From a virus: a stretch of 40,124 bases of DNA. Positions 3,083-34,077 of this stretch are shown in pieces (the stretch's first letter is position 1; every line of letters starts with the position of its first letter). The notes below the pieces were generated by a model. It worked only from the letters and a program-made list of their open reading frames with translations, searched no databases and was not told the origin of the DNA. The stretch is from the UHGV virus genome UHGV-2156197; one strand, given 5' to 3'. A program made the position numbers and the translations under genes.

Positions 3083-6000
3083 TGGGAGCCACTCCTGTTA
3101 GTTTACCAATCTGCACAAGCACACGACCTTCCGGCCCCGTAAAGGAAAGATTGTTGTCGGCTTTAGAAAGACACCACCCCCCCTGATTTGCAACTTTGTA
3201 ACCTTCTGACCAGATAGAACCTGAGATTTTCGCATTGTTGATTGCGGCGTTAGCAATTTTGGCGCTTGTTATACTTCCATTCTGAATAAACGCATCGCTG
3301 ATAAACACCTGACCATTAACAACAGCAAAGGGTGAATATTGCGTATCACCGCTGCCACTCATCAGGACGAACTGGTTTGCGTTAAACCCGACACGAGTGA
3401 CCACTGGCTTACCCGCTTCGGCCAGCACCGCGATCGACATCCCGGCGTTATACATCACACCGTTTATTCGAACTCCGGTTTTAAGGGTGTAAATTGCAGA
3501 TGCCCCGGTCGCATCAACCACGGCGGTGAGCTTATCTTCCAGCGCAGCAGTCACATCATTGAACTGCGCCTGCACCTGCGTCGACATTTCAGCCATGGCC
3601 TTATCGACCTGCGCAATGGTCGTTTTAACCACCAGAATATCCGCGCGTACCTCGCCGTACTGCGCCCACTGGTGTTCCACGGTTGCATGGTTGGCCAGCG
3701 CGTTCTGCAATGCGGCTTCAAGATTGGTATCAATGTCGCCGGTCAGGCGGTCACCGTCGGCAGATGTCAGGAAGTCATCAGCAATATCGCCCAGGTAGTC
3801 GTCAGCATTCGCATTAGATTCACCACGAACCCAGTCGGTCCACCCTGATTCATTACCCGTTCTGTCTACCAGCTGCGCGCGGTACCAGAACTCCTGACCA
3901 GCCTTCAAACCCAGTTGGGTGTATTCGGCAGACGGATAAGGCACATCCGACAACAAAAGGGGATTTGAGAAATCACTGTTCGCGGTGTACTGAATTTCCG
4001 TTTTCAGCGTGTCCCCGGTATTAGCCGGGAATCCCCAGTTCAGGCGAATCCCCCAGTTGATCGGCGTTGTCGCAAAGCCGACAGGTTTCGGCGGATTTCC
4101 CACCTTGCCCGTCAGCGTTTTCTCTTCGGAGTAGCCCCAGCCAGAGGAAATTTCAGAGGCATTAATAGCGCGCACACGCACGAGGTAGCGCCCGGCATAA
4201 ATACCCGATACATCAAATGACGTGGTGGAGCTGCGCGGCACGTTAACCCAGTTCCCGTCGTTGCGGCGCCATTGCGCTTCATAGGCGATAGCGTTCTGCG
4301 CCTGGTCCCAGCTCACGCGCATCGTTTCGACGCTAATATTCTGCTGCACCACTGAAAAGGAGCTGATCACGATGTTCGCAGGCGGCGACTGGTTACCCGG
4401 CGGGATCACACTCACCGGCCGCTGGTCAATGATGGCTCCGGTATCAATACGGGCATATTTATCCGGATCGTGCCATGCGCCAGTAATCGAGAAGGTACCA
4501 TCATTGTTATCGGAGACACTGACAACACGATACTGCTGGGCGTAGAGTTCATCTGACTCAACCACCCATACAGCTTCGGCCTGTGGTGTCTCACTGTATG
4601 CCGTGGTGACTGTGACTGATTCCCCGTTAACCGCCTGAATAGTCCTGCTCTGTGACGCACCGGAGGGAAGATTGAGAATAAGGCGATCGCCTGCTGCTGC
4701 ATCAGCTACGCGGTCAAGTTTAATCACGCGACCGTTAACAGCACTGATGCGGCCGCCCATAACTTTGCCGGACAGAAGCTCGTCTGACACGGCGATGATG
4801 TATCCCGGCTGCGGAATGTTTCCGTCCAGGCCAACATCAAACGAAACAACGCGATCCTTGTTGTTGGTGAGAATACCCCAGCGCCCCTTTCGGTTCGCTT
4901 CTGATTGCCTGGTACAGCCGATGGCTGTCATTTCCAGCTGATTAAATCCGTACCGGGCCACCAGAGGCTGCTCAAACACCGGCTCCATCGCATCTGCATA
5001 GGCGTTACCCGGATCAGACCAGGAAACCAGCGCCGTGGTATACCGCGTTTTTGTCGTGCTGCTGGAATAGGTAAAGCGTCCGTCGATAACGTTAGCGCGG
5101 GTGTAAGCGTAATCCACATCTCTCGGCATATCGGCAAGCGCAACAATCTGATCACCGCCCCAGTAGGTCATGCCACGGAAGATAGCAGCAAAATCACGCA
5201 GGACTGTGTAAGCGTCGTTTCGGTCCTGAATGTACACGTTGCAGGTATAACGTGGTTCGGTACCGTTGCCCCCTTTGCCGTCTAGCACCATCTGATCACA
5301 ATACTGGGCAACCTGATAAAGCGTCCATTTATCGATGTTAGCGGCAGTCAAACGGTGACCGAGGCCGAACCGGTCAGAAACAACCAGATCGTAAAAAATC
5401 CACGCAGGGTTATCCGTCCATGCCCACTTAAACGCACCGGTCCATGTACCGCTATAAATACGGGTTTCAGGGTCGTAGGTATCTGGAACGCGGATAACAC
5501 GACCGCGGGGCTCGCAGGAGATCTGCGGGATAGAACCGTTAAACTGGCTGGAATCGAATTCGATGTAGAGTAACGCTGTGTTTGGATAGCGTAACTTGGC
5601 GTCAATCACCTCAGTGAAGCTCTGCAGCGTCATCGTGTCGCCGATCTTCGCGCTGTTGGCGTCAGAGGTTATCTTACGCAGGCGGATTGTCCAGGTGCTT
5701 CCAACCTGCGGTAAATCAATACGGTGGCTGCGCTCGTAACCAGACGTTGTTTTTCCGGTCACGCTGGTATTGAGTACCGTCTGCCATGCGCCGCCGCCCG
5801 TCTGCAGGTCAATCGCATAATTGACCGAGTAACCGACCAGATCACCGTCGTCCTCCTGTTTGAAAAGCGATGGCCATTTCAGACGCAGGCGAACTGCCGA
5901 AAGCTGCGTATTGGTAAACGTTCGCGTCCAGGCTGTGGCGCTTGATACCTCAGTTCCCACGCTGATTTCGTTTTCGGTACCGGGAATACCCTGAATATAC

Positions 6001-6251
6001 TTTTGCGCCTGCGTTCCCGCGCGAAACTCCCACGTCACGCCGCTGAAGTTTTGGGAGCCATCGGCGTTCTCCAGCGCCGTTCCGTCCAGGTAGATATCTT
6101 TGCCGGTTAATTGTCCTGCAAATTCACCTTCGCCAAGCGCAACGAGGATTTTGGCTTTCGCTACAGATTGCAGATCATCAGGCTGTTCGGTAGGGGTTCT
6201 GGAACTGGAGCTGCCGCCCTTGCGGCCCTTTAACACTTTTTCTTTAGCCAT
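3075..6251 (-). CDS. J: host specificity / central tail fibre protein J
   Basis: 1058 aa; long-range similarity to lambda gpJ as recalled (e.g. YPNTAL, NPAW-FYD, YCDQ-V-DG-GG-EPR-TCN blocks). Confidence 0.9.
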   Translation of the reverse strand: MAKEKVLKGRKGGSSSSRTPTEQPDDLQSVAKAKILVALGEGEFAGQLTGKDIYLDGTALENADGSQNFSGVTWEFRAGTQAQKYIQGIPGTENEISVGTEVSSATAWTRTFTNTQLSAVRLRLKWPSLFKQEDDGDLVGYSVNYAIDLQTGGGAWQTVLNTSVTGKTTSGYERSHRIDLPQVGSTWTIRLRKITSDANSAKIGDTMTLQSFTEVIDAKLRYPNTALLYIEFDSSQFNGSIPQISCEPRGRVIRVPDTYDPETRIYSGTWTGAFKWAWTDNPAWIFYDLVVSDRFGLGHRLTAANIDKWTLYQVAQYCDQMVLDGKGGNGTEPRYTCNVYIQDRNDAYTVLRDFAAIFRGMTYWGGDQIVALADMPRDVDYAYTRANVIDGRFTYSSSTTKTRYTTALVSWSDPGNAYADAMEPVFEQPLVARYGFNQLEMTAIGCTRQSEANRKGRWGILTNNKDRVVSFDVGLDGNIPQPGYIIAVSDELLSGKVMGGRISAVNGRVIKLDRVADAAAGDRLILNLPSGASQSRTIQAVNGESVTVTTAYSETPQAEAVWVVESDELYAQQYRVVSVSDNNDGTFSITGAWHDPDKYARIDTGAIIDQRPVSVIPPGNQSPPANIVISSFSVVQQNISVETMRVSWDQAQNAIAYEAQWRRNDGNWVNVPRSSTTSFDVSGIYAGRYLVRVRAINASEISSGWGYSEEKTLTGKVGNPPKPVGFATTPINWGIRLNWGFPANTGDTLKTEIQYTANSDFSNPLLLSDVPYPSAEYTQLGLKAGQEFWYRAQLVDRTGNESGWTDWVRGESNANADDYLGDIADDFLTSADGDRLTGDIDTNLEAALQNALANHATVEHQWAQYGEVRADILVVKTTIAQVDKAMAEMSTQVQAQFNDVTAALEDKLTAVVDATGASAIYTLKTGVRINGVMYNAGMSIAVLAEAGKPVVTRVGFNANQFVLMSGSGDTQYSPFAVVNGQVFISDAFIQNGSITSAKIANAAINNAKISGSIWSEGYKVANQGGWCLSKADNNLSFTGPEGRVLVQIGKLTGVAPNV

Positions 6252-6261
6252 ATTGCGCCCA

Positions 6262-6285
6262 TAAAAAAAGCCACCCGAAGGTGGC
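6262..6285 (-). terminator. terminator-like hairpin in the I-J intergenic region
   Basis: GCCACC-CGAA-GGTGGC with A7 run on plus (T7 on the coding minus strand), 12 nt upstream of the J ATG. Confidence 0.4.
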
Positions 6286-6303
6286 CTGAAAAAGGTGTGT
6301 TAT

Positions 6304-6894
6304 CTACTGCTGATCTTCGACATAAATTCCGGCAGAAATAATCGCTCCGCCGATTCGCCGACGACCATAAAGAAGCGGGACCGGGTAACCCTGAGCTGCG
6401 GTGTTCGTAACTCCACCGAATGCGTAGGATGCACGGTTATCTGCACTTTGTTTGCTGGCTATGCCAGATGGCTGTGGAGAAAGCATCTGTACAACTCCGC
6501 CTAGCATCATTGCAGCACCAAATTTATATAAAAATGGTGAGGCTGCAGCCCATGGGGTGAAGCTAAGCACGGCACCAGCGGCAACCAACACGGCACCTAA
6601 AACTGTTTGCAGCACCCCGGCTTTTTTGCCCCCAATGATTACAGGCACAATTCTGATTACTTCACCTGTAACGGGAAAGCCAAGGTCGTCAACTCCAATA
6701 TTCTTTTTACCTTTGAAGATGGCAAATGTTAGCCCACGGCTTTTACTGCTAATCATATAACTTTCAAAGCCGGGGATAGTTTTAGCGAGGGCCGTTCCAG
6801 CTTCTGATACTTTATTGATAAGGCGATGGTGTATCTTTCCAAAGATCTTACCCGGCTCTCCACCTAGTTCAATTCGCGTCATTACCTCTTGCAT
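6304..6894 (-). CDS. I: tail assembly protein I
   Basis: Similar to lambda gpI C-terminal region (GGVFQ/VLGA, MMLGGVVQML); track start 6912 is TTG, trimmed to ATG 6894 with GAGGG SD. Confidence 0.8.
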   Translation of the reverse strand: MQEVMTRIELGGEPGKIFGKIHHRLINKVSEAGTALAKTIPGFESYMISSKSRGLTFAIFKGKKNIGVDDLGFPVTGEVIRIVPVIIGGKKAGVLQTVLGAVLVAAGAVLSFTPWAAASPFLYKFGAAMMLGGVVQMLSPQPSGIASKQSADNRASYAFGGVTNTAAQGYPVPLLYGRRRIGGAIISAGIYVEDQQ

Positions 6895-6916
6895 CGTACC
6901 CTCGACTTTCAATTGG

Positions 6917-7267
6917 CTATTGTTGTGATTTATTTGCTCTAATCACAATATTACATTCTTTATTATTTAACTCTCCGGACTGACCAATATCCCTTTGCGT
7001 TAAACAATCATTGGCAAGTTTTCTAACTGCTAATCTTGCATATACATCACCATTATTTGAAAGTAATCCAGTGATAAACTCATTATCAGATCTATTATGC
7101 TTCTGTTGTGCTTCCATCATCGCAATCATAAAGGCGTAATGGCTCACATAAGTTTCAGCAACAGAATTTGATTTTATTTCAGAATGACGTTCAAGATAAT
7201 CGTCTACAGTTCCTGCGTATGAATTAAATAATGTCGATAATAACAATAGACTTAATACAAATTTCAT
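6917..7267 (-). CDS. small secreted protein with signal peptide, moron inserted between K and I
   Basis: 116 aa; MKFVLSLLLLSTLFNSYA signal peptide; visibly AT-rich versus flanking tail genes; GGAG SD 8 nt upstream. Confidence 0.6.
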   Translation of the reverse strand: MKFVLSLLLLSTLFNSYAGTVDDYLERHSEIKSNSVAETYVSHYAFMIAMMEAQQKHNRSDNEFITGLLSNNGDVYARLAVRKLANDCLTQRDIGQSGELNNKECNIVIRANKSQQ

Positions 7268-7295
7268 GGTTTCGCTCCTTTGTTTTGAGCAAAGG

Positions 7296-8006
7296 TTAGC
7301 ACAGAGATTTATAACGTAGAATCTTCATCGTTCTTTCTTGCCAGTAACCGCCATACGGCACGCGCTGACTCAGATGACCGTACAGGTGGTGTAGCAACAT
7401 ATTACCCTCCAGCAGGATTCCCGCGTGGTTCCACTTATCAGCCTGGACCTGCATGATCACCATATCCCCTGGTTTCGGTGGCCCGTCGAATTCACGGAAT
7501 CCGCACTCATACCAGCAATCCTGATAGAAGTTGTCCGGATAGTCGTTTTCCCACCAGGGATAATCCACCCGGTAATCATGGAGCTCGATACCATGAGTTT
7601 GCCGGAAATAGCTCATTACCAGCCCCCAGCAGTCGAAGTGACCAAGCACAAACGGACGCTCCAGCAGCGGCAGTTCTCCACGCGGCTGGATGGTACGTAA
7701 ATCCCCCTCCGGCCAGCTCACGATATGCCAGGGTAAAAGCGTCGCATCGCATTGCGCTTTATCCAGTTCGCTCGGTTGCGTCGTGGCATCAGGGTGACTG
7801 TGAGCGATGGCGATCACCGTTCCCCAGTCCTCAGCAGTTGCATAGTCCTCGGGGCAAAGGACAAAATTGTCCTCCGGCGCCGCGGCAAGATTCCGGCACG
7901 GAAAATAACGTTCAACACGGCTTTTCTGCGCCACCACGCCGCAACACTCACGAGGATATTCTGCTGCAGCATGCGCCATAATCGCATCGATGGTTTTCTG
8001 ACGCAT
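7296..8006 (-). CDS. K: tail assembly protein K (MPN/JAB plus NlpC/P60)
   Basis: N-terminus nearly identical in pattern to lambda gpK (MRQ-TI-AI-AHA-AEYPRECCGVVAQK...YFPCRNL), HSHP motif. Confidence 0.85.
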   Translation of the reverse strand: MRQKTIDAIMAHAAAEYPRECCGVVAQKSRVERYFPCRNLAAAPEDNFVLCPEDYATAEDWGTVIAIAHSHPDATTQPSELDKAQCDATLLPWHIVSWPEGDLRTIQPRGELPLLERPFVLGHFDCWGLVMSYFRQTHGIELHDYRVDYPWWENDYPDNFYQDCWYECGFREFDGPPKPGDMVIMQVQADKWNHAGILLEGNMLLHHLYGHLSQRVPYGGYWQERTMKILRYKSLC

Positions 8007-8007
8007 A

Positions 8008-8763
8008 TCAGCTCCTGATCAAAGATGTTCCGGGGAAACCACCATGCGAAAGCTCGTTATTTTCGCCGAATCGGAGTTTGCAGGCCGTCAGCGTGCCGTT
8101 GCATTCATCCAACGACGGATCGCTTACCGGGTTGTTGTTTTTGTCGAAATAGCGGGTGCCGGCATAGTCACAGCCGTCGCCGGTGCGGTATTTATTACGA
8201 ATGCACCAGGTGCATAGCGAATGAAGTTGCCGGGTAGGGATCATTAATCCCTGCAGGTCCATCGGGCTGGAGAGTGTGAACTCAACCACTTCGTTGGTTT
8301 CACCACTCTTTGCATCGATGTAGAAAACCTTCAGCTTTTCCTGAGTCGGATCTGCTGTGGGGTTGCCATCGACAAAGTTATTTGCATCAAGATATTTGCC
8401 CAGCGTGTCATGAATGGTCACCTTCGCCTGCAGCATATCGTCATAAGCCAGACAAAGTGCCGTTATGGAGCTATCAAGGTTAGCTACCGATAATTTTGGC
8501 TGCGCGCCGCTTCCATTGGTAGATGCCTCGATCCCCTCAATCTGGCAGGGCCAGGCTTTATACTCCTCGCCCTGCCACCAGATCGATTTTGCAGGCAGTT
8601 TATTTTCATCACCTCCGGCGGCAGTAATTGCCGCTTCAGTATGTGCCAGGCTGTAGCTGTGAAATCGCAGCACCTCCCCTGTACCAAAGGCCGTTCCGTC
8701 GACCTCGTAAAGCCTGACTTCATCGCCGGGCTCGAGCTTTTGATAATCAGCGTTCAGACTCAT
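8008..8763 (-). CDS. L: minor tail protein L
   Basis: 251 aa, similar to lambda gpL C-terminal Cys cluster region; overlaps K start. Confidence 0.85.
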   Translation of the reverse strand: MSLNADYQKLEPGDEVRLYEVDGTAFGTGEVLRFHSYSLAHTEAAITAAGGDENKLPAKSIWWQGEEYKAWPCQIEGIEASTNGSGAQPKLSVANLDSSITALCLAYDDMLQAKVTIHDTLGKYLDANNFVDGNPTADPTQEKLKVFYIDAKSGETNEVVEFTLSSPMDLQGLMIPTRQLHSLCTWCIRNKYRTGDGCDYAGTRYFDKNNNPVSDPSLDECNGTLTACKLRFGENNELSHGGFPGTSLIRS

Positions 8764-21060: not shown

Positions 21061-21411
21061 TCATTTGAGTCTTTCAACTGCTGTCTTCGCCCTGTGGCAA
21101 GGCTTGCAGAGGCTTTCGAGGTTGGAAAGGTCATCGGTCCCCCCATTTGCTTTGGCGGTGATGTGGTCCACCGTCTCAGCGGGTGTATACCTTCCATTTC
21201 GCAGGCATTCCTGACAAAGGTGTTTATCCCTGTCGAGAACGATTGGCCGCAGCCTGTCCCACTTGCTGCCATAACCTCGCTGATGCCTGCTCTGTCCTCG
21301 CTGATGCTGCTGCCAGCCTTCGTTAAGGTGCTTGGGACAATAGCCTGAGCGTTCAGTGGTTGTGCCAGAGCAGCCACGCTTGCGGCATGCTCTCGGTATT
21401 AACGCAGGCAT
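21061..21411 (-). CDS. HNH endonuclease (packaging-associated)
   Basis: Cys-rich HNH motifs (CPKH..., HITAKANGG, CKPCH); track start 21426 is GTG; ATG 21411 overlaps the upstream stop (TGATG). Confidence 0.8.
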   Translation of the reverse strand: MPALIPRACRKRGCSGTTTERSGYCPKHLNEGWQQHQRGQSRHQRGYGSKWDRLRPIVLDRDKHLCQECLRNGRYTPAETVDHITAKANGGTDDLSNLESLCKPCHRAKTAVERLK

Positions 21412-22001
21412 CAGGCTAACCTCCACGCCCGGCGGCGTTCTGTTCGTGGTGCTGAGTCAGGGTGACGCTCAACCGGTTCGCCGTCTGCGTGGTCCACCAG
21501 CGACCAACAGGGATAGACGACAACGCCACCATAAGCATCGCCCACGGCATAATCGGCAGGCTTACTGCCGTCCCATTGAGACAGCACACGGCTGATGCTT
21601 TGAGGCGGTATGCTGTAGCACACGCCATGTATCAGGCGTTGCAGCATAATGAAGTCAGACCTCACCTTATCCGCATTAATCAGGCGTTCAGCTATCTGCA
21701 TTTGGTATTGCGGTGGCCGCCCGGTGCCCAGATAAAAACTAAGCATGTCGCCAGGGAAACGAGCCAGCCAGCCCGTAAGCTTGTCTCTGAATCCACGTAC
21801 AGGCAGCGCGTCGTCTTCCAGTACCACCACCCGGCAAGGCTGCTCAGCAGCCCATTCGATAGCGCGCCGGTGATTCCAGTTAGCCCCGTGATTCCCTTCA
21901 TCGATAAGAAGGTGCGCGCCAAGTTCACCAGCCAGCAATGCAGCTGAGGCGTAACGGGAATGATGGCCAACCACAACAAACTTCACTTGTGTTTCCACCA
22001 T
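21411..22001 (-). CDS. putative GT-A-type glycosyltransferase (possibly GT25-like)
   Basis: 196 aa; GELGA...VVVLEDDALP block resembles the GE-GC...EDD motif of GT25-type transferases; weak, from memory. Confidence 0.35.
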   Translation of the reverse strand: MVETQVKFVVVGHHSRYASAALLAGELGAHLLIDEGNHGANWNHRRAIEWAAEQPCRVVVLEDDALPVRGFRDKLTGWLARFPGDMLSFYLGTGRPPQYQMQIAERLINADKVRSDFIMLQRLIHGVCYSIPPQSISRVLSQWDGSKPADYAVGDAYGGVVVYPCWSLVDHADGEPVERHPDSAPRTERRRAWRLA

Positions 22002-23440
22002 GCTGCCTCCTTACCGATACCATCAGTTTTGAAAACGGTATGTACCAGAGGGCCGGTGACCAACCTGTCAGCGAATGACTGCGCAACGATACCGAACGCC
22101 AGCATGTCACCCACCGCTGCGCCAGCCTGTTCTTTCTTCCAGAAACGATAACTCTCGATCCGGTAGTAAAGACGGATGATGCCATGAGCGAACGCCATCA
22201 CATCAGCGCGGGTGCCTCCCAGAAGACCAGCATTAAGCATCACATCGCCGCGGTGCGCTTCAATGAATTCCTGATAGATACGCTCAGGATGATTCTGTTT
22301 CGCCCAGGTGTCGGCGTAGATCTTCGGTTCAGAACCGACGTAAACATTCCCGGGCTGCATTTCTTCCCACGGTGCGCGGAGCATTTCGACATCGGTACCA
22401 TCGGTACACCAGACGAACCGGTATTCAGGGTGATCGCGCAGGTGCTGCCAGATATGCAGCCAGCGCCGGAAGTAGACATTCATCTTCACGTCAGGGACGC
22501 GATACAACTCAACGTCTGCCGATGCCGTCTGCAGCTCATCCACCAGCGCAATACGGCCACAATTCCGAAGCGAGGCAGCCCACCTGGTCAGCATGTCTGA
22601 TACGGCCGCCATTTTCGTACCGCGCTGCGGGTCTGGCTGGCTGGTAAGCAACGTTGTGATTACCACGTCGCGCTGAGATCGATATTCGGCATAGCCTGTA
22701 TATCCTGAATCCCGGCGCTGCCCGTAAATTACAGCGTTCTTTTTATAGAGCGCTTCACGTTCAGGCCTCGGTATGCTGCGCGCGCCCTCTTCGTATTCAT
22801 CCATTGAGTGAATCAGCTTTTCAGAGCCAACCACATCAGCAAACGCCCAGGACGTTAAGCCAGCGTTATAAATCCGAAGCGCCAAATCAGGATGCTCATA
22901 CATGCCTCGACCGTATACCGGATCGAATCCGCCAACCTTCTCAATGGCGCTGCGGTGGTAGTACAGCATCACACCGCGCTGCCCGGTGTAAGCGATATGC
23001 TTATCATCCTGGTGCAGGACGGTCATATCGTTTATCTTTCGTGGACCAGCCAGATCGAGAAACTGGTAAGCCAGGTGTGACTCAGGTGATTCGATGTAAG
23101 GCAGGTGCCAGTTATCGGCAACCGGCCATGCGTCATCATCCCACAGGAAGAGATGCTCACATCCGGCGTCCACCAGCGCTTCGAGGCTTCGGTTTTTCGA
23201 GGCCACAATGCCGAGGGATGTTTCATTGCGAAGCAGCTGCACGCCGTCGGGAACGACTGCGGCAGGTTTTGAACCATCATCTATGACAACCACGAGCGCG
23301 CCGGACGGTAAAAATTGATGATGCTGCGCCAGTGTCCGCTTCAATACGTCAGGGCGATTATGCGTTGTGATTGCTATTCCTATGCGTGACACCGAATTGC
23401 AGACAGGCGCGTATGGAACACCATCGATAGTGACCTGCAT
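21983..23440 (-). CDS. two-domain protein with N-terminal GT2-family glycosyltransferase domain
   Basis: 485 aa; IGIAITTHNRP...VVVIDDGS and DDD (FLWDDDAWP) motifs of GT-A/GT2 enzymes; C-terminal about 250 aa of unknown function; overlaps the next gene by 19 bp. Confidence 0.6.
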   Translation of the reverse strand: MQVTIDGVPYAPVCNSVSRIGIAITTHNRPDVLKRTLAQHHQFLPSGALVVVIDDGSKPAAVVPDGVQLLRNETSLGIVASKNRSLEALVDAGCEHLFLWDDDAWPVADNWHLPYIESPESHLAYQFLDLAGPRKINDMTVLHQDDKHIAYTGQRGVMLYYHRSAIEKVGGFDPVYGRGMYEHPDLALRIYNAGLTSWAFADVVGSEKLIHSMDEYEEGARSIPRPEREALYKKNAVIYGQRRDSGYTGYAEYRSQRDVVITTLLTSQPDPQRGTKMAAVSDMLTRWAASLRNCGRIALVDELQTASADVELYRVPDVKMNVYFRRWLHIWQHLRDHPEYRFVWCTDGTDVEMLRAPWEEMQPGNVYVGSEPKIYADTWAKQNHPERIYQEFIEAHRGDVMLNAGLLGGTRADVMAFAHGIIRLYYRIESYRFWKKEQAGAAVGDMLAFGIVAQSFADRLVTGPLVHTVFKTDGIGKEAAWWKHK

Positions 23441-23503
23441 AATTTCTCCAAAATAAAATGGTTCAGGACTCCTATCTGGACATCACTTTTGCTGACACCA
23501 AAA

Positions 23504-23512
23504 TGATATAAT
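23504..23512 (+). promoter_or_regulatory. extended -10 promoter TGATATAAT for the plus-strand moron
   Basis: Perfect TGnTATAAT; AGAGG SD at 23537-23541 before ATG 23549. Confidence 0.5.
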
Positions 23513-23548
23513 CGCAGCTCATTTACACAACCCTTTAGAGGTAATTTC

Positions 23549-23806
23549 ATGACAGATCTGCAGAAACGCATTGATGAACTCGAAAAAACTATTGAAGAGC
23601 TACTTTTAGATCAGCATGCAGCAAGAATTGCTATTACCACGATATCCACAGCTTGGAACTCCCTTGCCAAACAGCCTGGTATGCTTGGCGATAGCTACGA
23701 TAAAGCTTTTAAATCAGCGCCGCCTGTGGAGTTTGAAAACCCAGTAAATGAAGGTTATGCAGAAGAGTTACATAAAAGAGTTGTAGCCCTACTTTCTAAA
23801 TCTTAA
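23549..23806 (+). CDS. hypothetical small protein with coiled-coil N-terminus (opposite-strand moron)
   Basis: 85 aa; only plus-strand gene inside the minus-strand late region; AT-rich; own promoter and SD. Confidence 0.55.
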   Translation: MTDLQKRIDELEKTIEELLLDQHAARIAITTISTAWNSLAKQPGMLGDSYDKAFKSAPPVEFENPVNEGYAEELHKRVVALLSKS

Positions 23807-23842
23807 TCGAATCGTTTGGGCTACCTTTAAGTGGCCCTATTT

Positions 23843-24367
23843 CTAATGTCTCCCTTCCTCAATATCCCTAATCCCTGCCAGTTGGTTGTTACCCTTCTCT
23901 ATCTCTGCAAGTAATGATTGAATCCAGAGAACGGCCTGACAATAGGTTATTGAGCTGGCGGCAGCGGTACTATCATCGGCTGCGTCAGTGTCCCCGGTAT
24001 CGGGGTGCATTGCGCTGGCACGTAAACGGTTCGCGTAGTTGAGCAGCCCACCAGCGACATTAGCAGGAACAGGCAGATCACAGGTTTTTTCACGGCGAAG
24101 AATCTCCCGGTATTCGATAACGGTCTTTTCGGTTCCGGCATCAATCAGCGAGTTCAGGCGACTGGCGTTCTCCGCTACCTGGTTAAACCGGTTGAAGTTG
24201 AACGCCTGGGTAGTTATCACCGTTGCCTGCAGTGCGTTATCGTTGCGCAGTATCCGGTTGTCACTCTCTGACGTGGTCAACGCTGCATTGCTGCGCGCCA
24301 GTAGTACACAGAGCACCGCGATGAAGATGATTGCTGCCATCCCAACAATAACGAGGCTTCTGTTCAC
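23843..24367 (-). CDS. Rz: Rz-type i-spanin
   Basis: N-terminal TMD (SLVIVGMAAIIFIAVLCVLL) then coiled periplasmic domain; GTG 24367 overlaps the endolysin stop (GTGA) with GGGGGA SD; track start 24484 is an upstream GTG. Confidence 0.7.
   Translation of the reverse strand: MNRSLVIVGMAAIIFIAVLCVLLARSNAALTTSESDNRILRNDNALQATVITTQAFNFNRFNQVAENASRLNSLIDAGTEKTVIEYREILRREKTCDLPVPANVAGGLLNYANRLRASAMHPDTGDTDAADDSTAAASSITYCQAVLWIQSLLAEIEKGNNQLAGIRDIEEGRH
23947..24141 (-). CDS. Rz1: Rz1-type o-spanin lipoprotein embedded in Rz in the +1 frame
   Basis: Lipobox LVGC-S, proline-rich mature part; entirely inside Rz; ATG 24141 (track start 24144 is TTG). Confidence 0.65.
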   Translation of the reverse strand: MPEPKRPLSNTGRFFAVKKPVICLFLLMSLVGCSTTRTVYVPAQCTPIPGTLTQPMIVPLPPAQ

Positions 24368-25327: not shown

Positions 25328-25567
25328 TTAAGCCTCTAGTTCATTTAAATAGCGATCACCCTTTGACGTGATTTCAATCGCTATCCACCCACCTTCATCA
25401 GACTTACTTTGAACAGCATTTACCAATCCCAAATCAGCAAGATCTGAAATGGCAAAATCTACCGTTTTCGCTGGAATGTGAGGAAGATCAGAAGATTGAA
25501 TTGTTTCACGTGGACCAAGTGCATCTGCTCGACGCAGAATTTCGAAATGTACAGATGTGATTTTCAT
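25328..25567 (-). CDS. hypothetical small protein (moron between late terminator and holin)
   Basis: 79 aa; AT-rich; GGAGG SD 7 nt upstream. Confidence 0.5.
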   Translation of the reverse strand: MKITSVHFEILRRADALGPRETIQSSDLPHIPAKTVDFAISDLADLGLVNAVQSKSDEGGWIAIEITSKGDRYLNELEA

Positions 25568-33450: not shown

Positions 33451-34077
33451 ATGGAAACTGTCGGTCAGCGCATCAAAGCTCTCAGGCGCATAACCAAAAC
33501 CTCGCAGAAAGAACTGGGTAAGTTCTGCGGTGTTAGTGATGTGGCGGTTGGGTATTGGGAAAAAGACGTTAATGTGCCTGGAGGCGAGTCACTTGCGAAA
33601 CTTGCAAAGTATTTCAACACATCAATTGATTACATACTTTATGGCACTGAATTTGAAGGCAATCTGATAACCAAGATGCGAAGGATTCCGGTGATATCCT
33701 GGGTTCAGGCTGGACAGTTTACAGAATGTAAAGCAGCAGAAGTTTTCAGCGAAGTAGATAAGTGGATAGAGACATCACTCCGCATAGGGGATAGCTCCTT
33801 TGCATTGGAGGTTAAAGGTGATTCGATGACAAACCCTAATGGCCTCCCGACAATCCCTGAAGGGGCAACAGTCATAGTAGATCCAGATGCAGAGCCACTT
33901 CATGGAAAGATAGTCGTAGCCAGGCTTGATGGGACAAACGAGGCTACTGTAAAAAAACTTGTCATCGATGGGCCTCAAAAGTTCTTAGTTCCCTTAAATC
34001 CACGCTATCCAAACATTTCAATTAACGGTAATTGCCTGATCATCGGCGTTGTCAAAGGCGTTCAGTACGAGCTTTAA
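33451..34077 (+). CDS. CI-like repressor (XRE HTH plus S24 LexA-like autopeptidase domain)
   Basis: 208 aa; N-terminal HTH; C-terminal GDSM...KK catalytic Ser/Lys dyad of S24 peptidases. Confidence 0.85.
   Translation: METVGQRIKALRRITKTSQKELGKFCGVSDVAVGYWEKDVNVPGGESLAKLAKYFNTSIDYILYGTEFEGNLITKMRRIPVISWVQAGQFTECKAAEVFSEVDKWIETSLRIGDSSFALEVKGDSMTNPNGLPTIPEGATVIVDPDAEPLHGKIVVARLDGTNEATVKKLVIDGPQKFLVPLNPRYPNISINGNCLIIGVVKGVQYEL

Follow-up and report, generated by a model that had tools for sequence, protein, structure and literature searches.

The locus and its neighbours

The stretch of DNA analysed here, which we call the window, comprises 40,124 nucleotides of the virus genome UHGV-2156197 and is a lambdoid prophage in minus orientation. 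Its genes lie in the order tail-fibre gene, tail, head, terminase, HNH endonuclease, two glycosyltransferase genes, lysis cassette, Q antiterminator, replication genes and cII. Between the larger glycosyltransferase gene and the lysis cassette is an insert that carries, on the plus strand, a small open reading frame related to the pid gene of Salmonella phage P22, referred to below as the Pid-like gene. The features needed for the discussion are the following.

21983..23440 (-): glycosyltransferase gene, 485 aa, divergent from the cassette; the next gene of the late operon
23441-23842: intergenic insert of 402 bp holding the Pid-like ORF, between the glycosyltransferase start codon (23440, -) and the stop codon of the Rz-like spanin gene (23843, -)
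23441..23548 (+): non-coding DNA upstream of the ORF, also the divergent spacer (108 bp) before the glycosyltransferase start codon at 23440 (-)
23504-23512 (+): predicted extended -10 element TGATATAAT, perfect, 36 nt before the ATG
23537-23541 (+): Shine-Dalgarno AGAGG, 7 nt before the ATG
23549-23806 (+): Pid-like ORF, 85 aa; between the preceding in-frame stop and its ATG there is no other start codon
23818..23837 (+): 3' hairpin GGGCUAC-N6-GUGGCCC, then UAUUUCU, after the stop codon; -12.1 kcal/mol, z = -2.6
23843..24340 (-): Rz-like spanin gene, with which the lysis cassette ends; convergent with the insert
33451-34077 (+): cI repressor gene

Both neighbours of the Pid-like ORF are those named in the original prediction, which had placed an 85-aa plus-strand gene between a GT2 gene and Rz. 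The 485-aa glycosyltransferase matches PHROG 1579, "glycosyltransferase", at 5.8e-246 and has a weak Pfam match to GT2. The Rz-like spanin gene is called as a 165-aa gene in identical loci, the matching region is labelled "Rz-like spanin" in mEp237 and HK225, and an ORF embedded in it (23947-24144) has a lipobox-like LVGC. The gene region had also been described as AT-rich, and indeed the GC content is 0.40-0.42 over 23375-23874 compared with 0.52-0.58 on both sides. The further claim that this is the sole plus-strand gene between 460 and 33450 agrees with a scan, by length and position, of plus-strand ORFs of at least 30 aa lying mostly within the gaps between minus-strand genes, which turned up no other credible ORF in those gaps. 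The extent first proposed for the element, 23441-23830, has the correct start, but its end falls inside the hairpin, which runs to 23837, and the last 7 nt are lost.

The two glycosyltransferase genes of the window (21411-23440, -), encoding proteins of 485 aa (PHROG 1579) and 196 aa (PHROG 854), are situated inside the late operon, between the lysis genes and the HNH/terminase genes. The same pair is common to HK542, ECP1, mEp390, ENT39118 and other phages, at 80-88% DNA identity.

Promoter, leader and 3' hairpin

A perfect extended -10 promoter and a good Shine-Dalgarno had been claimed for the gene, and both are in place, as TGATATAAT at 23504-23512 and as AGAGG 7 nt before the ATG. No usable -35 hexamer was found at a spacing of 16-18 nt from TGATATAAT; extended -10 promoters normally do without one. 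Transcription is predicted to start near 23519-23521, which would leave a leader of some 30 nt. Over the 40-kb window the pattern TGNTATAAT is found at two sites, where 0.92 would be expected, and 23 of 100 shuffled sequences reach two, so the count by itself is not significant. What matters is the placement: both perfect sites are in intergenic DNA, each facing a gene. The second perfect TGnTATAAT, TGTTATAAT at 25611-25603 (-), is situated a short way downstream of the Q antiterminator gene, and since a late promoter is expected there, this site is probably the late promoter. The 79-aa ORF between it and the holin gene (25328-25567, -) matches PHROG 32916 at 8.7e-26.

Sequence comparison extends beyond the window. 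Four diverged loci, namely the window and the loci designated L011, L007 and L012, whose proteins are 71-88% identical, keep the pattern TGnTATAnT 36-39 nt upstream of the ATG. The box reads TGATATAAT, TGATATAGT, TGATATATT or TGTTATAAT, and in L007 and L012 it is kept though the DNA further upstream is unrelated. The Shine-Dalgarno is kept as AGAGG or ATAGG in the aligned loci. When the Pid-like promoter was compared with the cI/cro operator and immunity region for cI-operator-like sequence, no shared 8-mer was found, and thus there is no sign of repressor control.

The hairpin at 23818-23837 is likely to be both an intrinsic terminator and a stabiliser of the plus-strand transcript. The U-tract that follows it is poor (UAUUUCU), and on the minus strand no U-run follows it. 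The hairpin is kept in L011 and L012, and comparison of the stems (GGGCUAC/GUGGCCC with GAGCCAC/GUGGCUC) shows a compensatory change from G-C to A-U at the second stem pair.

The protein and its family

A search with the cassette DNA against phage genomes and complete E. coli genomes gave no near-identical match. At the protein level, tblastn of the 85-aa sequence against phage genomes found P22, BTP1 and related Salmonella phages, at 40% identity and 98% coverage (E = 6e-8), the BTP1 homologue being annotated "Pid regulatory protein". Aligned by blastp to P22 Pid, the window protein is 40% identical over its full length with no gap (E = 5e-23), and PHROG 16546 is matched both by the window protein (9.6e-19) and by P22 Pid (9.2e-51). 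A profile of the window-clade relatives, run against 1.84 billion representative proteins, retrieved 28 proteins, about 25 of them 80-90 aa in length; the cluster representative of P22 Pid, P0012, which is 61% identical to Pid, was recovered at E = 2.4e-17. By these sequence matches the window protein is a member of the P22/BTP1 Pid family (PHROG 16546), and like the family in size it is predicted as a stand-alone protein of 85 aa with a confident predicted fold.

The relatives form about 25 sequence clusters, from prophages of Citrobacter, Enterobacter, Pseudescherichia, Serratia, Pantoea and Salmonella, and the named members (from Citrobacter, Pseudescherichia, Enterobacter, Serratia and Pantoea) are all labelled "hypothetical protein." The exact window protein is recorded on 192 contigs of the Citrobacter freundii complex, and genomes that carry the prophage include GCA_032192495.1, CP119048.1 and CP098330.1. 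The original prediction had named lack of conservation outside UHGV-2156197 as one of the findings that would count against it; with relatives in the prophages of several genera, that objection falls away. In species-representative genomes, a pattern search based on an alignment of relatives gave 85 pattern matches, none of which was confirmed, while a 19-mer from the gene gave chance matches only, in unrelated metagenome-assembled genomes. This prophage gene is evidently absent from those genomes.

The ratio dN/dS is 0.07-0.11 between the window gene and three diverged relatives, and the protein is under strong purifying selection. A spurious ORF or a small RNA as the functional content of the insert is ruled out by this ratio. 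Across the family alignment, no more than about 11 positions show little or no variation; most of them belong to the helix core, and H23 and Y70 are the others.

The coiled-coil N-terminus that had been proposed is plausible: hydrophobic residues at positions 4, 8, 11, 15 and 18 form a heptad pattern, and there is a weak match to the HSBP1 coiled coil. An AlphaFold2 model built with 24 family sequences (pLDDT 92, pTM 0.71) has three helices, a long one at 2-40 with a continuous heptad pattern and short ones at 45-56 and 70-82. A fold search against PDB and BFVD returned nothing below E = 1, the top matches being generic long helices such as fibrinogen, and the structure thus gives no independent functional support.

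Searches of Pfam, NCBIfam and PADLOC yielded no usable family for the protein. The PADLOC search did give a marginal match to PbeC (E = 0.002, 14.5 bits, over a 41-residue helical stretch), and as many lysogen-expressed morons of lambdoid late regions are defence genes, we considered whether the prophage might express the gene for superinfection exclusion or anti-phage defence. This seems highly improbable to us. The PbeC match is a short, coiled-coil-like piece of a model of 648 positions and finds no support elsewhere, the 85-aa protein has no membrane segment and no nuclease or ATPase motif, and no defence phenotype was found for P22 Pid in the published work on Pid.

A fixed slot in the late region

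Nearly all relatives keep the gene in one slot, with the lysis cassette on one side and the small terminase gene on the other, and in antisense orientation to the late operon. Slot and orientation are shared by the Citrobacter prophages of the window type and by seven further groups (Pseudescherichia, two of Enterobacter, two of Serratia, Pantoea, and P22/BTP1), though their terminases are unrelated, being of the HK97-like, lambda Nu1/GpA and P22 Terminase_2 types. The only exception among the loci examined is L012, where the Pid-family gene (5001-5261, +), 74% identical to the window protein, adjoins xis/int. It retains TGTTATAAT and a perfect 8-bp hairpin, as expected of a mobile cassette.

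The fixed position might suggest that the element acts mainly in cis, the convergent unit, right behind the lysis genes, acting in lysogens or carrier cells to dampen the read-through of leaky late transcription towards the packaging genes and being silenced in turn by late transcription, with the protein of secondary importance. Conservation of position and orientation across phages with unrelated terminases would fit such a role, as would the fact that the cassette always has its own promoter-proximal signals and hairpin. We nevertheless regard it as quite improbable, since a dN/dS of about 0.1 indicates that the protein sequence is what is selected, and L012 adjoins xis/int, yet keeps promoter and hairpin. 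In P22, moreover, a frameshift in pid abolishes the phenotype, and pid can be deleted without noticeable change in lytic or lysogenic growth (PMC3573128).

The contents of the slot vary among related phages. HK97-like phages with the glycosyltransferase gene match the window up to the start codon of that gene, at about 23442, and lysis modules match it again from about 23886-23921 onward; in Cronobacter phage ENT39118 and in Escherichia phage Fostie the slot is taken by other ORFs, on the minus strand. The features that define a moron, a term reportedly defined by Juhala et al. in 2000, are found here: a predicted promoter and a hairpin around one gene, presence that varies among related phages, and low GC content. 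The sequence evidence supports our reading of the 402-bp insert as a self-contained moron cassette encoding a helical protein of the Pid family. The original prediction of an autonomous opposite-strand moron thus stands as far as anatomy is concerned (AT-richness, a predicted promoter and terminator of its own, a variable slot), although it overlooked the kinship to P22 Pid.

Two other arrangements were seen in the late regions of related prophages. L005 (3510-3800, +) and L026 and L027 (1555-1845, +) have one more gene of opposite strand, encoding 96 aa, which lies towards the terminase from the 196-aa glucosyltransferase gene; it adjoins the small terminase gene in L005 and the gene at the HNH position in L026 and L027. 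These genes suggest that this late region offers antisense morons a further slot, and at the corresponding position the window has a shadow ORF only. In L028 and L029, Serratia prophages with a Pid-like gene, a gene pair encoding NA37 (PF04245) and RelA_SpoT (PF04607) domains is positioned at about 5956-8023 (+), between the Q gene and the holin gene, and could be an alarmone-synthetase toxin or defence module.

What is known of Pid in P22 and BTP1

The P22 Pid protein, still termed an ORFan in 2022, has 86 aa, and its translation, not RNA from the locus, is required for derepression of the host operon dgoRKAT (PMC3573128). Large amounts of the protein are seen after temperate infection and a faint signal in obligate lytic infection; in P22 lysogens it is not detectable, and its expression marks carrier-state cells (PMC3573128). 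In the P22 pid promoter the -10 box is eroded to AATCCT; the promoter lies 174 nt ahead of the ATG and is active without phage factors; single changes towards consensus raise its activity four- to six-fold, and a P22 prophage with the -10 up-mutation C-183A shows constitutive dgo derepression in lysogens (PMC8835761). The 3' hairpin of P22 pid is needed for mRNA stability (PMC8835761). Expression in the carrier state was suggested by the authors to be a gene-dosage effect (PMC8835761, Wolput et al. 2022). In lysogen cultures of BTP1, the pid locus, which is identical to that of P22, is among the five most transcribed prophage genes (PMC7067206).

The homologue in P22 and BTP1 thus gives mixed signals on expression in lysogens, with no detectable Pid protein in the one and high pid transcription in the other. 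For the window gene, which the original prediction took to be typical lysogen-expressed cargo, expression in lysogens is plausible, a reasonable expectation from its consensus extended -10 element and from the result with the P22 -10 up-mutant. The promoter sequence argues for a stronger regime than the expression confined to carrier-state cells that is seen with P22.

The unusually long P22 pid leader also preserves part of another gene. About 90 nt of it (L002, approximately 880-981) are about 90% identical to the start of terS in a Pantoea prophage (L032, approximately 3880-3976), in which an intact terS of the Terminase_2 type directly abuts the Pid-like gene, and a 62-aa remnant ORF of P22 is 69% identical to the N-terminus of the L032 TerS (E = 2e-17). 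The leader thus contains the fossil 5' end of a Terminase_2-type small terminase gene, which may explain the origin of its length of 174 nt.

A possible mechanism and its host target

In the reading that we prefer, to which we give a probability of roughly one half, the insert is a moron cassette whose Pid-like protein relieves repression by DgoR, expressed from a promoter that is active in lysogens and carrier cells. Sigma-70 RNA polymerase would start about 30 nt before the ATG, with no need of a phage factor or a -35 hexamer, and the transcript would end at the hairpin at 23818-23837. The protein would then act like P22 Pid, relieving repression by the host repressor DgoR, which is of the GntR/FadR type. 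The simplest route would be binding of DgoR by the Pid-like protein, because extra DgoR cancels the effect of Pid in Salmonella (PMC3573128); in published work on P22 Pid, direct binding of Pid to DgoR was not found. Relief of DgoR repression would turn on the uptake and catabolism of D-galactonate.

Expression of the Pid-like gene would probably be constitutive whenever late transcription is off, as in lysogens and carrier-state cells, because the -10 box is consensus and not eroded as in P22. During lytic growth, the Q-antiterminated late transcript would cross the gene in antisense and should suppress it. The promoter activity, start and termination assigned to the window copy are predictions from sequence.

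We infer DgoR as the target of the window protein from the P22 system, and at 40% identity over 85 residues a binding partner can change. It is therefore possible, if somewhat doubtful, that the window protein is a Pid-family protein directed at a different host target, either another sugar-acid repressor of the GntR/FadR type or an unrelated protein, with a phenotype other than D-galactonate use. The distance from P22 Pid is in line with this, as are hosts as far apart as Serratia and Pantoea and the small number of positions, about 11 and mostly in the helix core, that are invariant or nearly so, which leaves the surface residues free to vary. On the other hand, DgoR is unusually conserved, being 84-96% identical across Escherichia, Salmonella, Enterobacter, Pantoea, Serratia and Klebsiella, so that a conserved target is available to all members of the family, and no other target is known for any of them. 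The DgoR search returned many genera, with no Citrobacter entry among the matches listed; dgoR and dgoD transcripts have been reported in Citrobacter rodentium (bioRxiv 10.64898/2026.06.14.730666).

For enteric bacteria, a link has been drawn between the use of D-galactonate and both virulence and colonisation of the gut (PMC3573128; PMC12288454), and a constitutively expressed copy could thus alter host fitness. A broader proposal is that Pid is the founder of a widespread family of anti-repressors in Enterobacterales prophages that reprogram the sugar-acid metabolism of the host, that their antisense slot lets late transcription silence them, and that the Citrobacter copy is a lysogenic-conversion factor. 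Taken as a whole, we think this proposal unlikely to hold. Were it true, a carrier-state signal would, by way of the consensus promoter, have given place to constitutive D-galactonate catabolism and an advantage in gut colonisation for lysogens.

Few phage proteins other than P22 Pid are known to activate one specific host metabolic operon. What was an ORFan is now a family found in at least six genera, in one slot and one orientation, with promoters that range from eroded (P22) to consensus (the window). Two questions have become testable: whether dgo derepression is the common function of the family, and whether promoter strength decides between expression in the carrier state only and expression throughout lysogens. 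The advance is an incremental one that brings no new principle, as this kind of element has already been described; what is new is a family with a fixed genomic niche and a natural variant with a strong promoter.

Comparison with known systems

The closest known system is P22 Pid. The two proteins, of 85 aa in the window and 86 aa in P22, align end to end without a gap at 40% identity and belong to PHROG 16546, and both genes run against the late operon, with lysis genes on one side and packaging genes on the other. They differ in their control signals. P22 has the -10 box AATCCT and a 174-nt leader, whereas the window has TGATATAAT and a predicted leader of about 30 nt; with TGATATAAT 36 nt before the ATG and an entire spacer of 108 bp, the weak promoter and long leader of the P22 type are not found there. 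At the other end of the gene, P22 has a terminator with a strong U-run and the window a hairpin with a weak one. The neighbours are rha/orf25 and orf80 in P22 but Rz and the glycosyltransferase gene in the window, and the host is Salmonella for P22, while the window copy belongs to the Citrobacter freundii complex.

As a promoter, the element upstream of the Pid-like gene resembles galP1, an extended -10 (TGn) promoter of the sigma-70 class, in having TG one base upstream of a consensus TATAAT and no recognisable -35. The window copy is assigned to this class by its sequence and conservation.

As a genetic element, the insert resembles the morons of lambdoid phages, of which bor and lom of lambda and gp15 of HK97 are examples. 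Like them, it is a single gene with a promoter and a terminator of its own, set between two operon genes, has a lower GC content than its surroundings, and is present in some and absent from others among related phages. It differs in its orientation and its constancy of place, as most of the classic morons run with the late operon or at its ends, whereas the Pid-like family is antisense to the operon and keeps to one slot.
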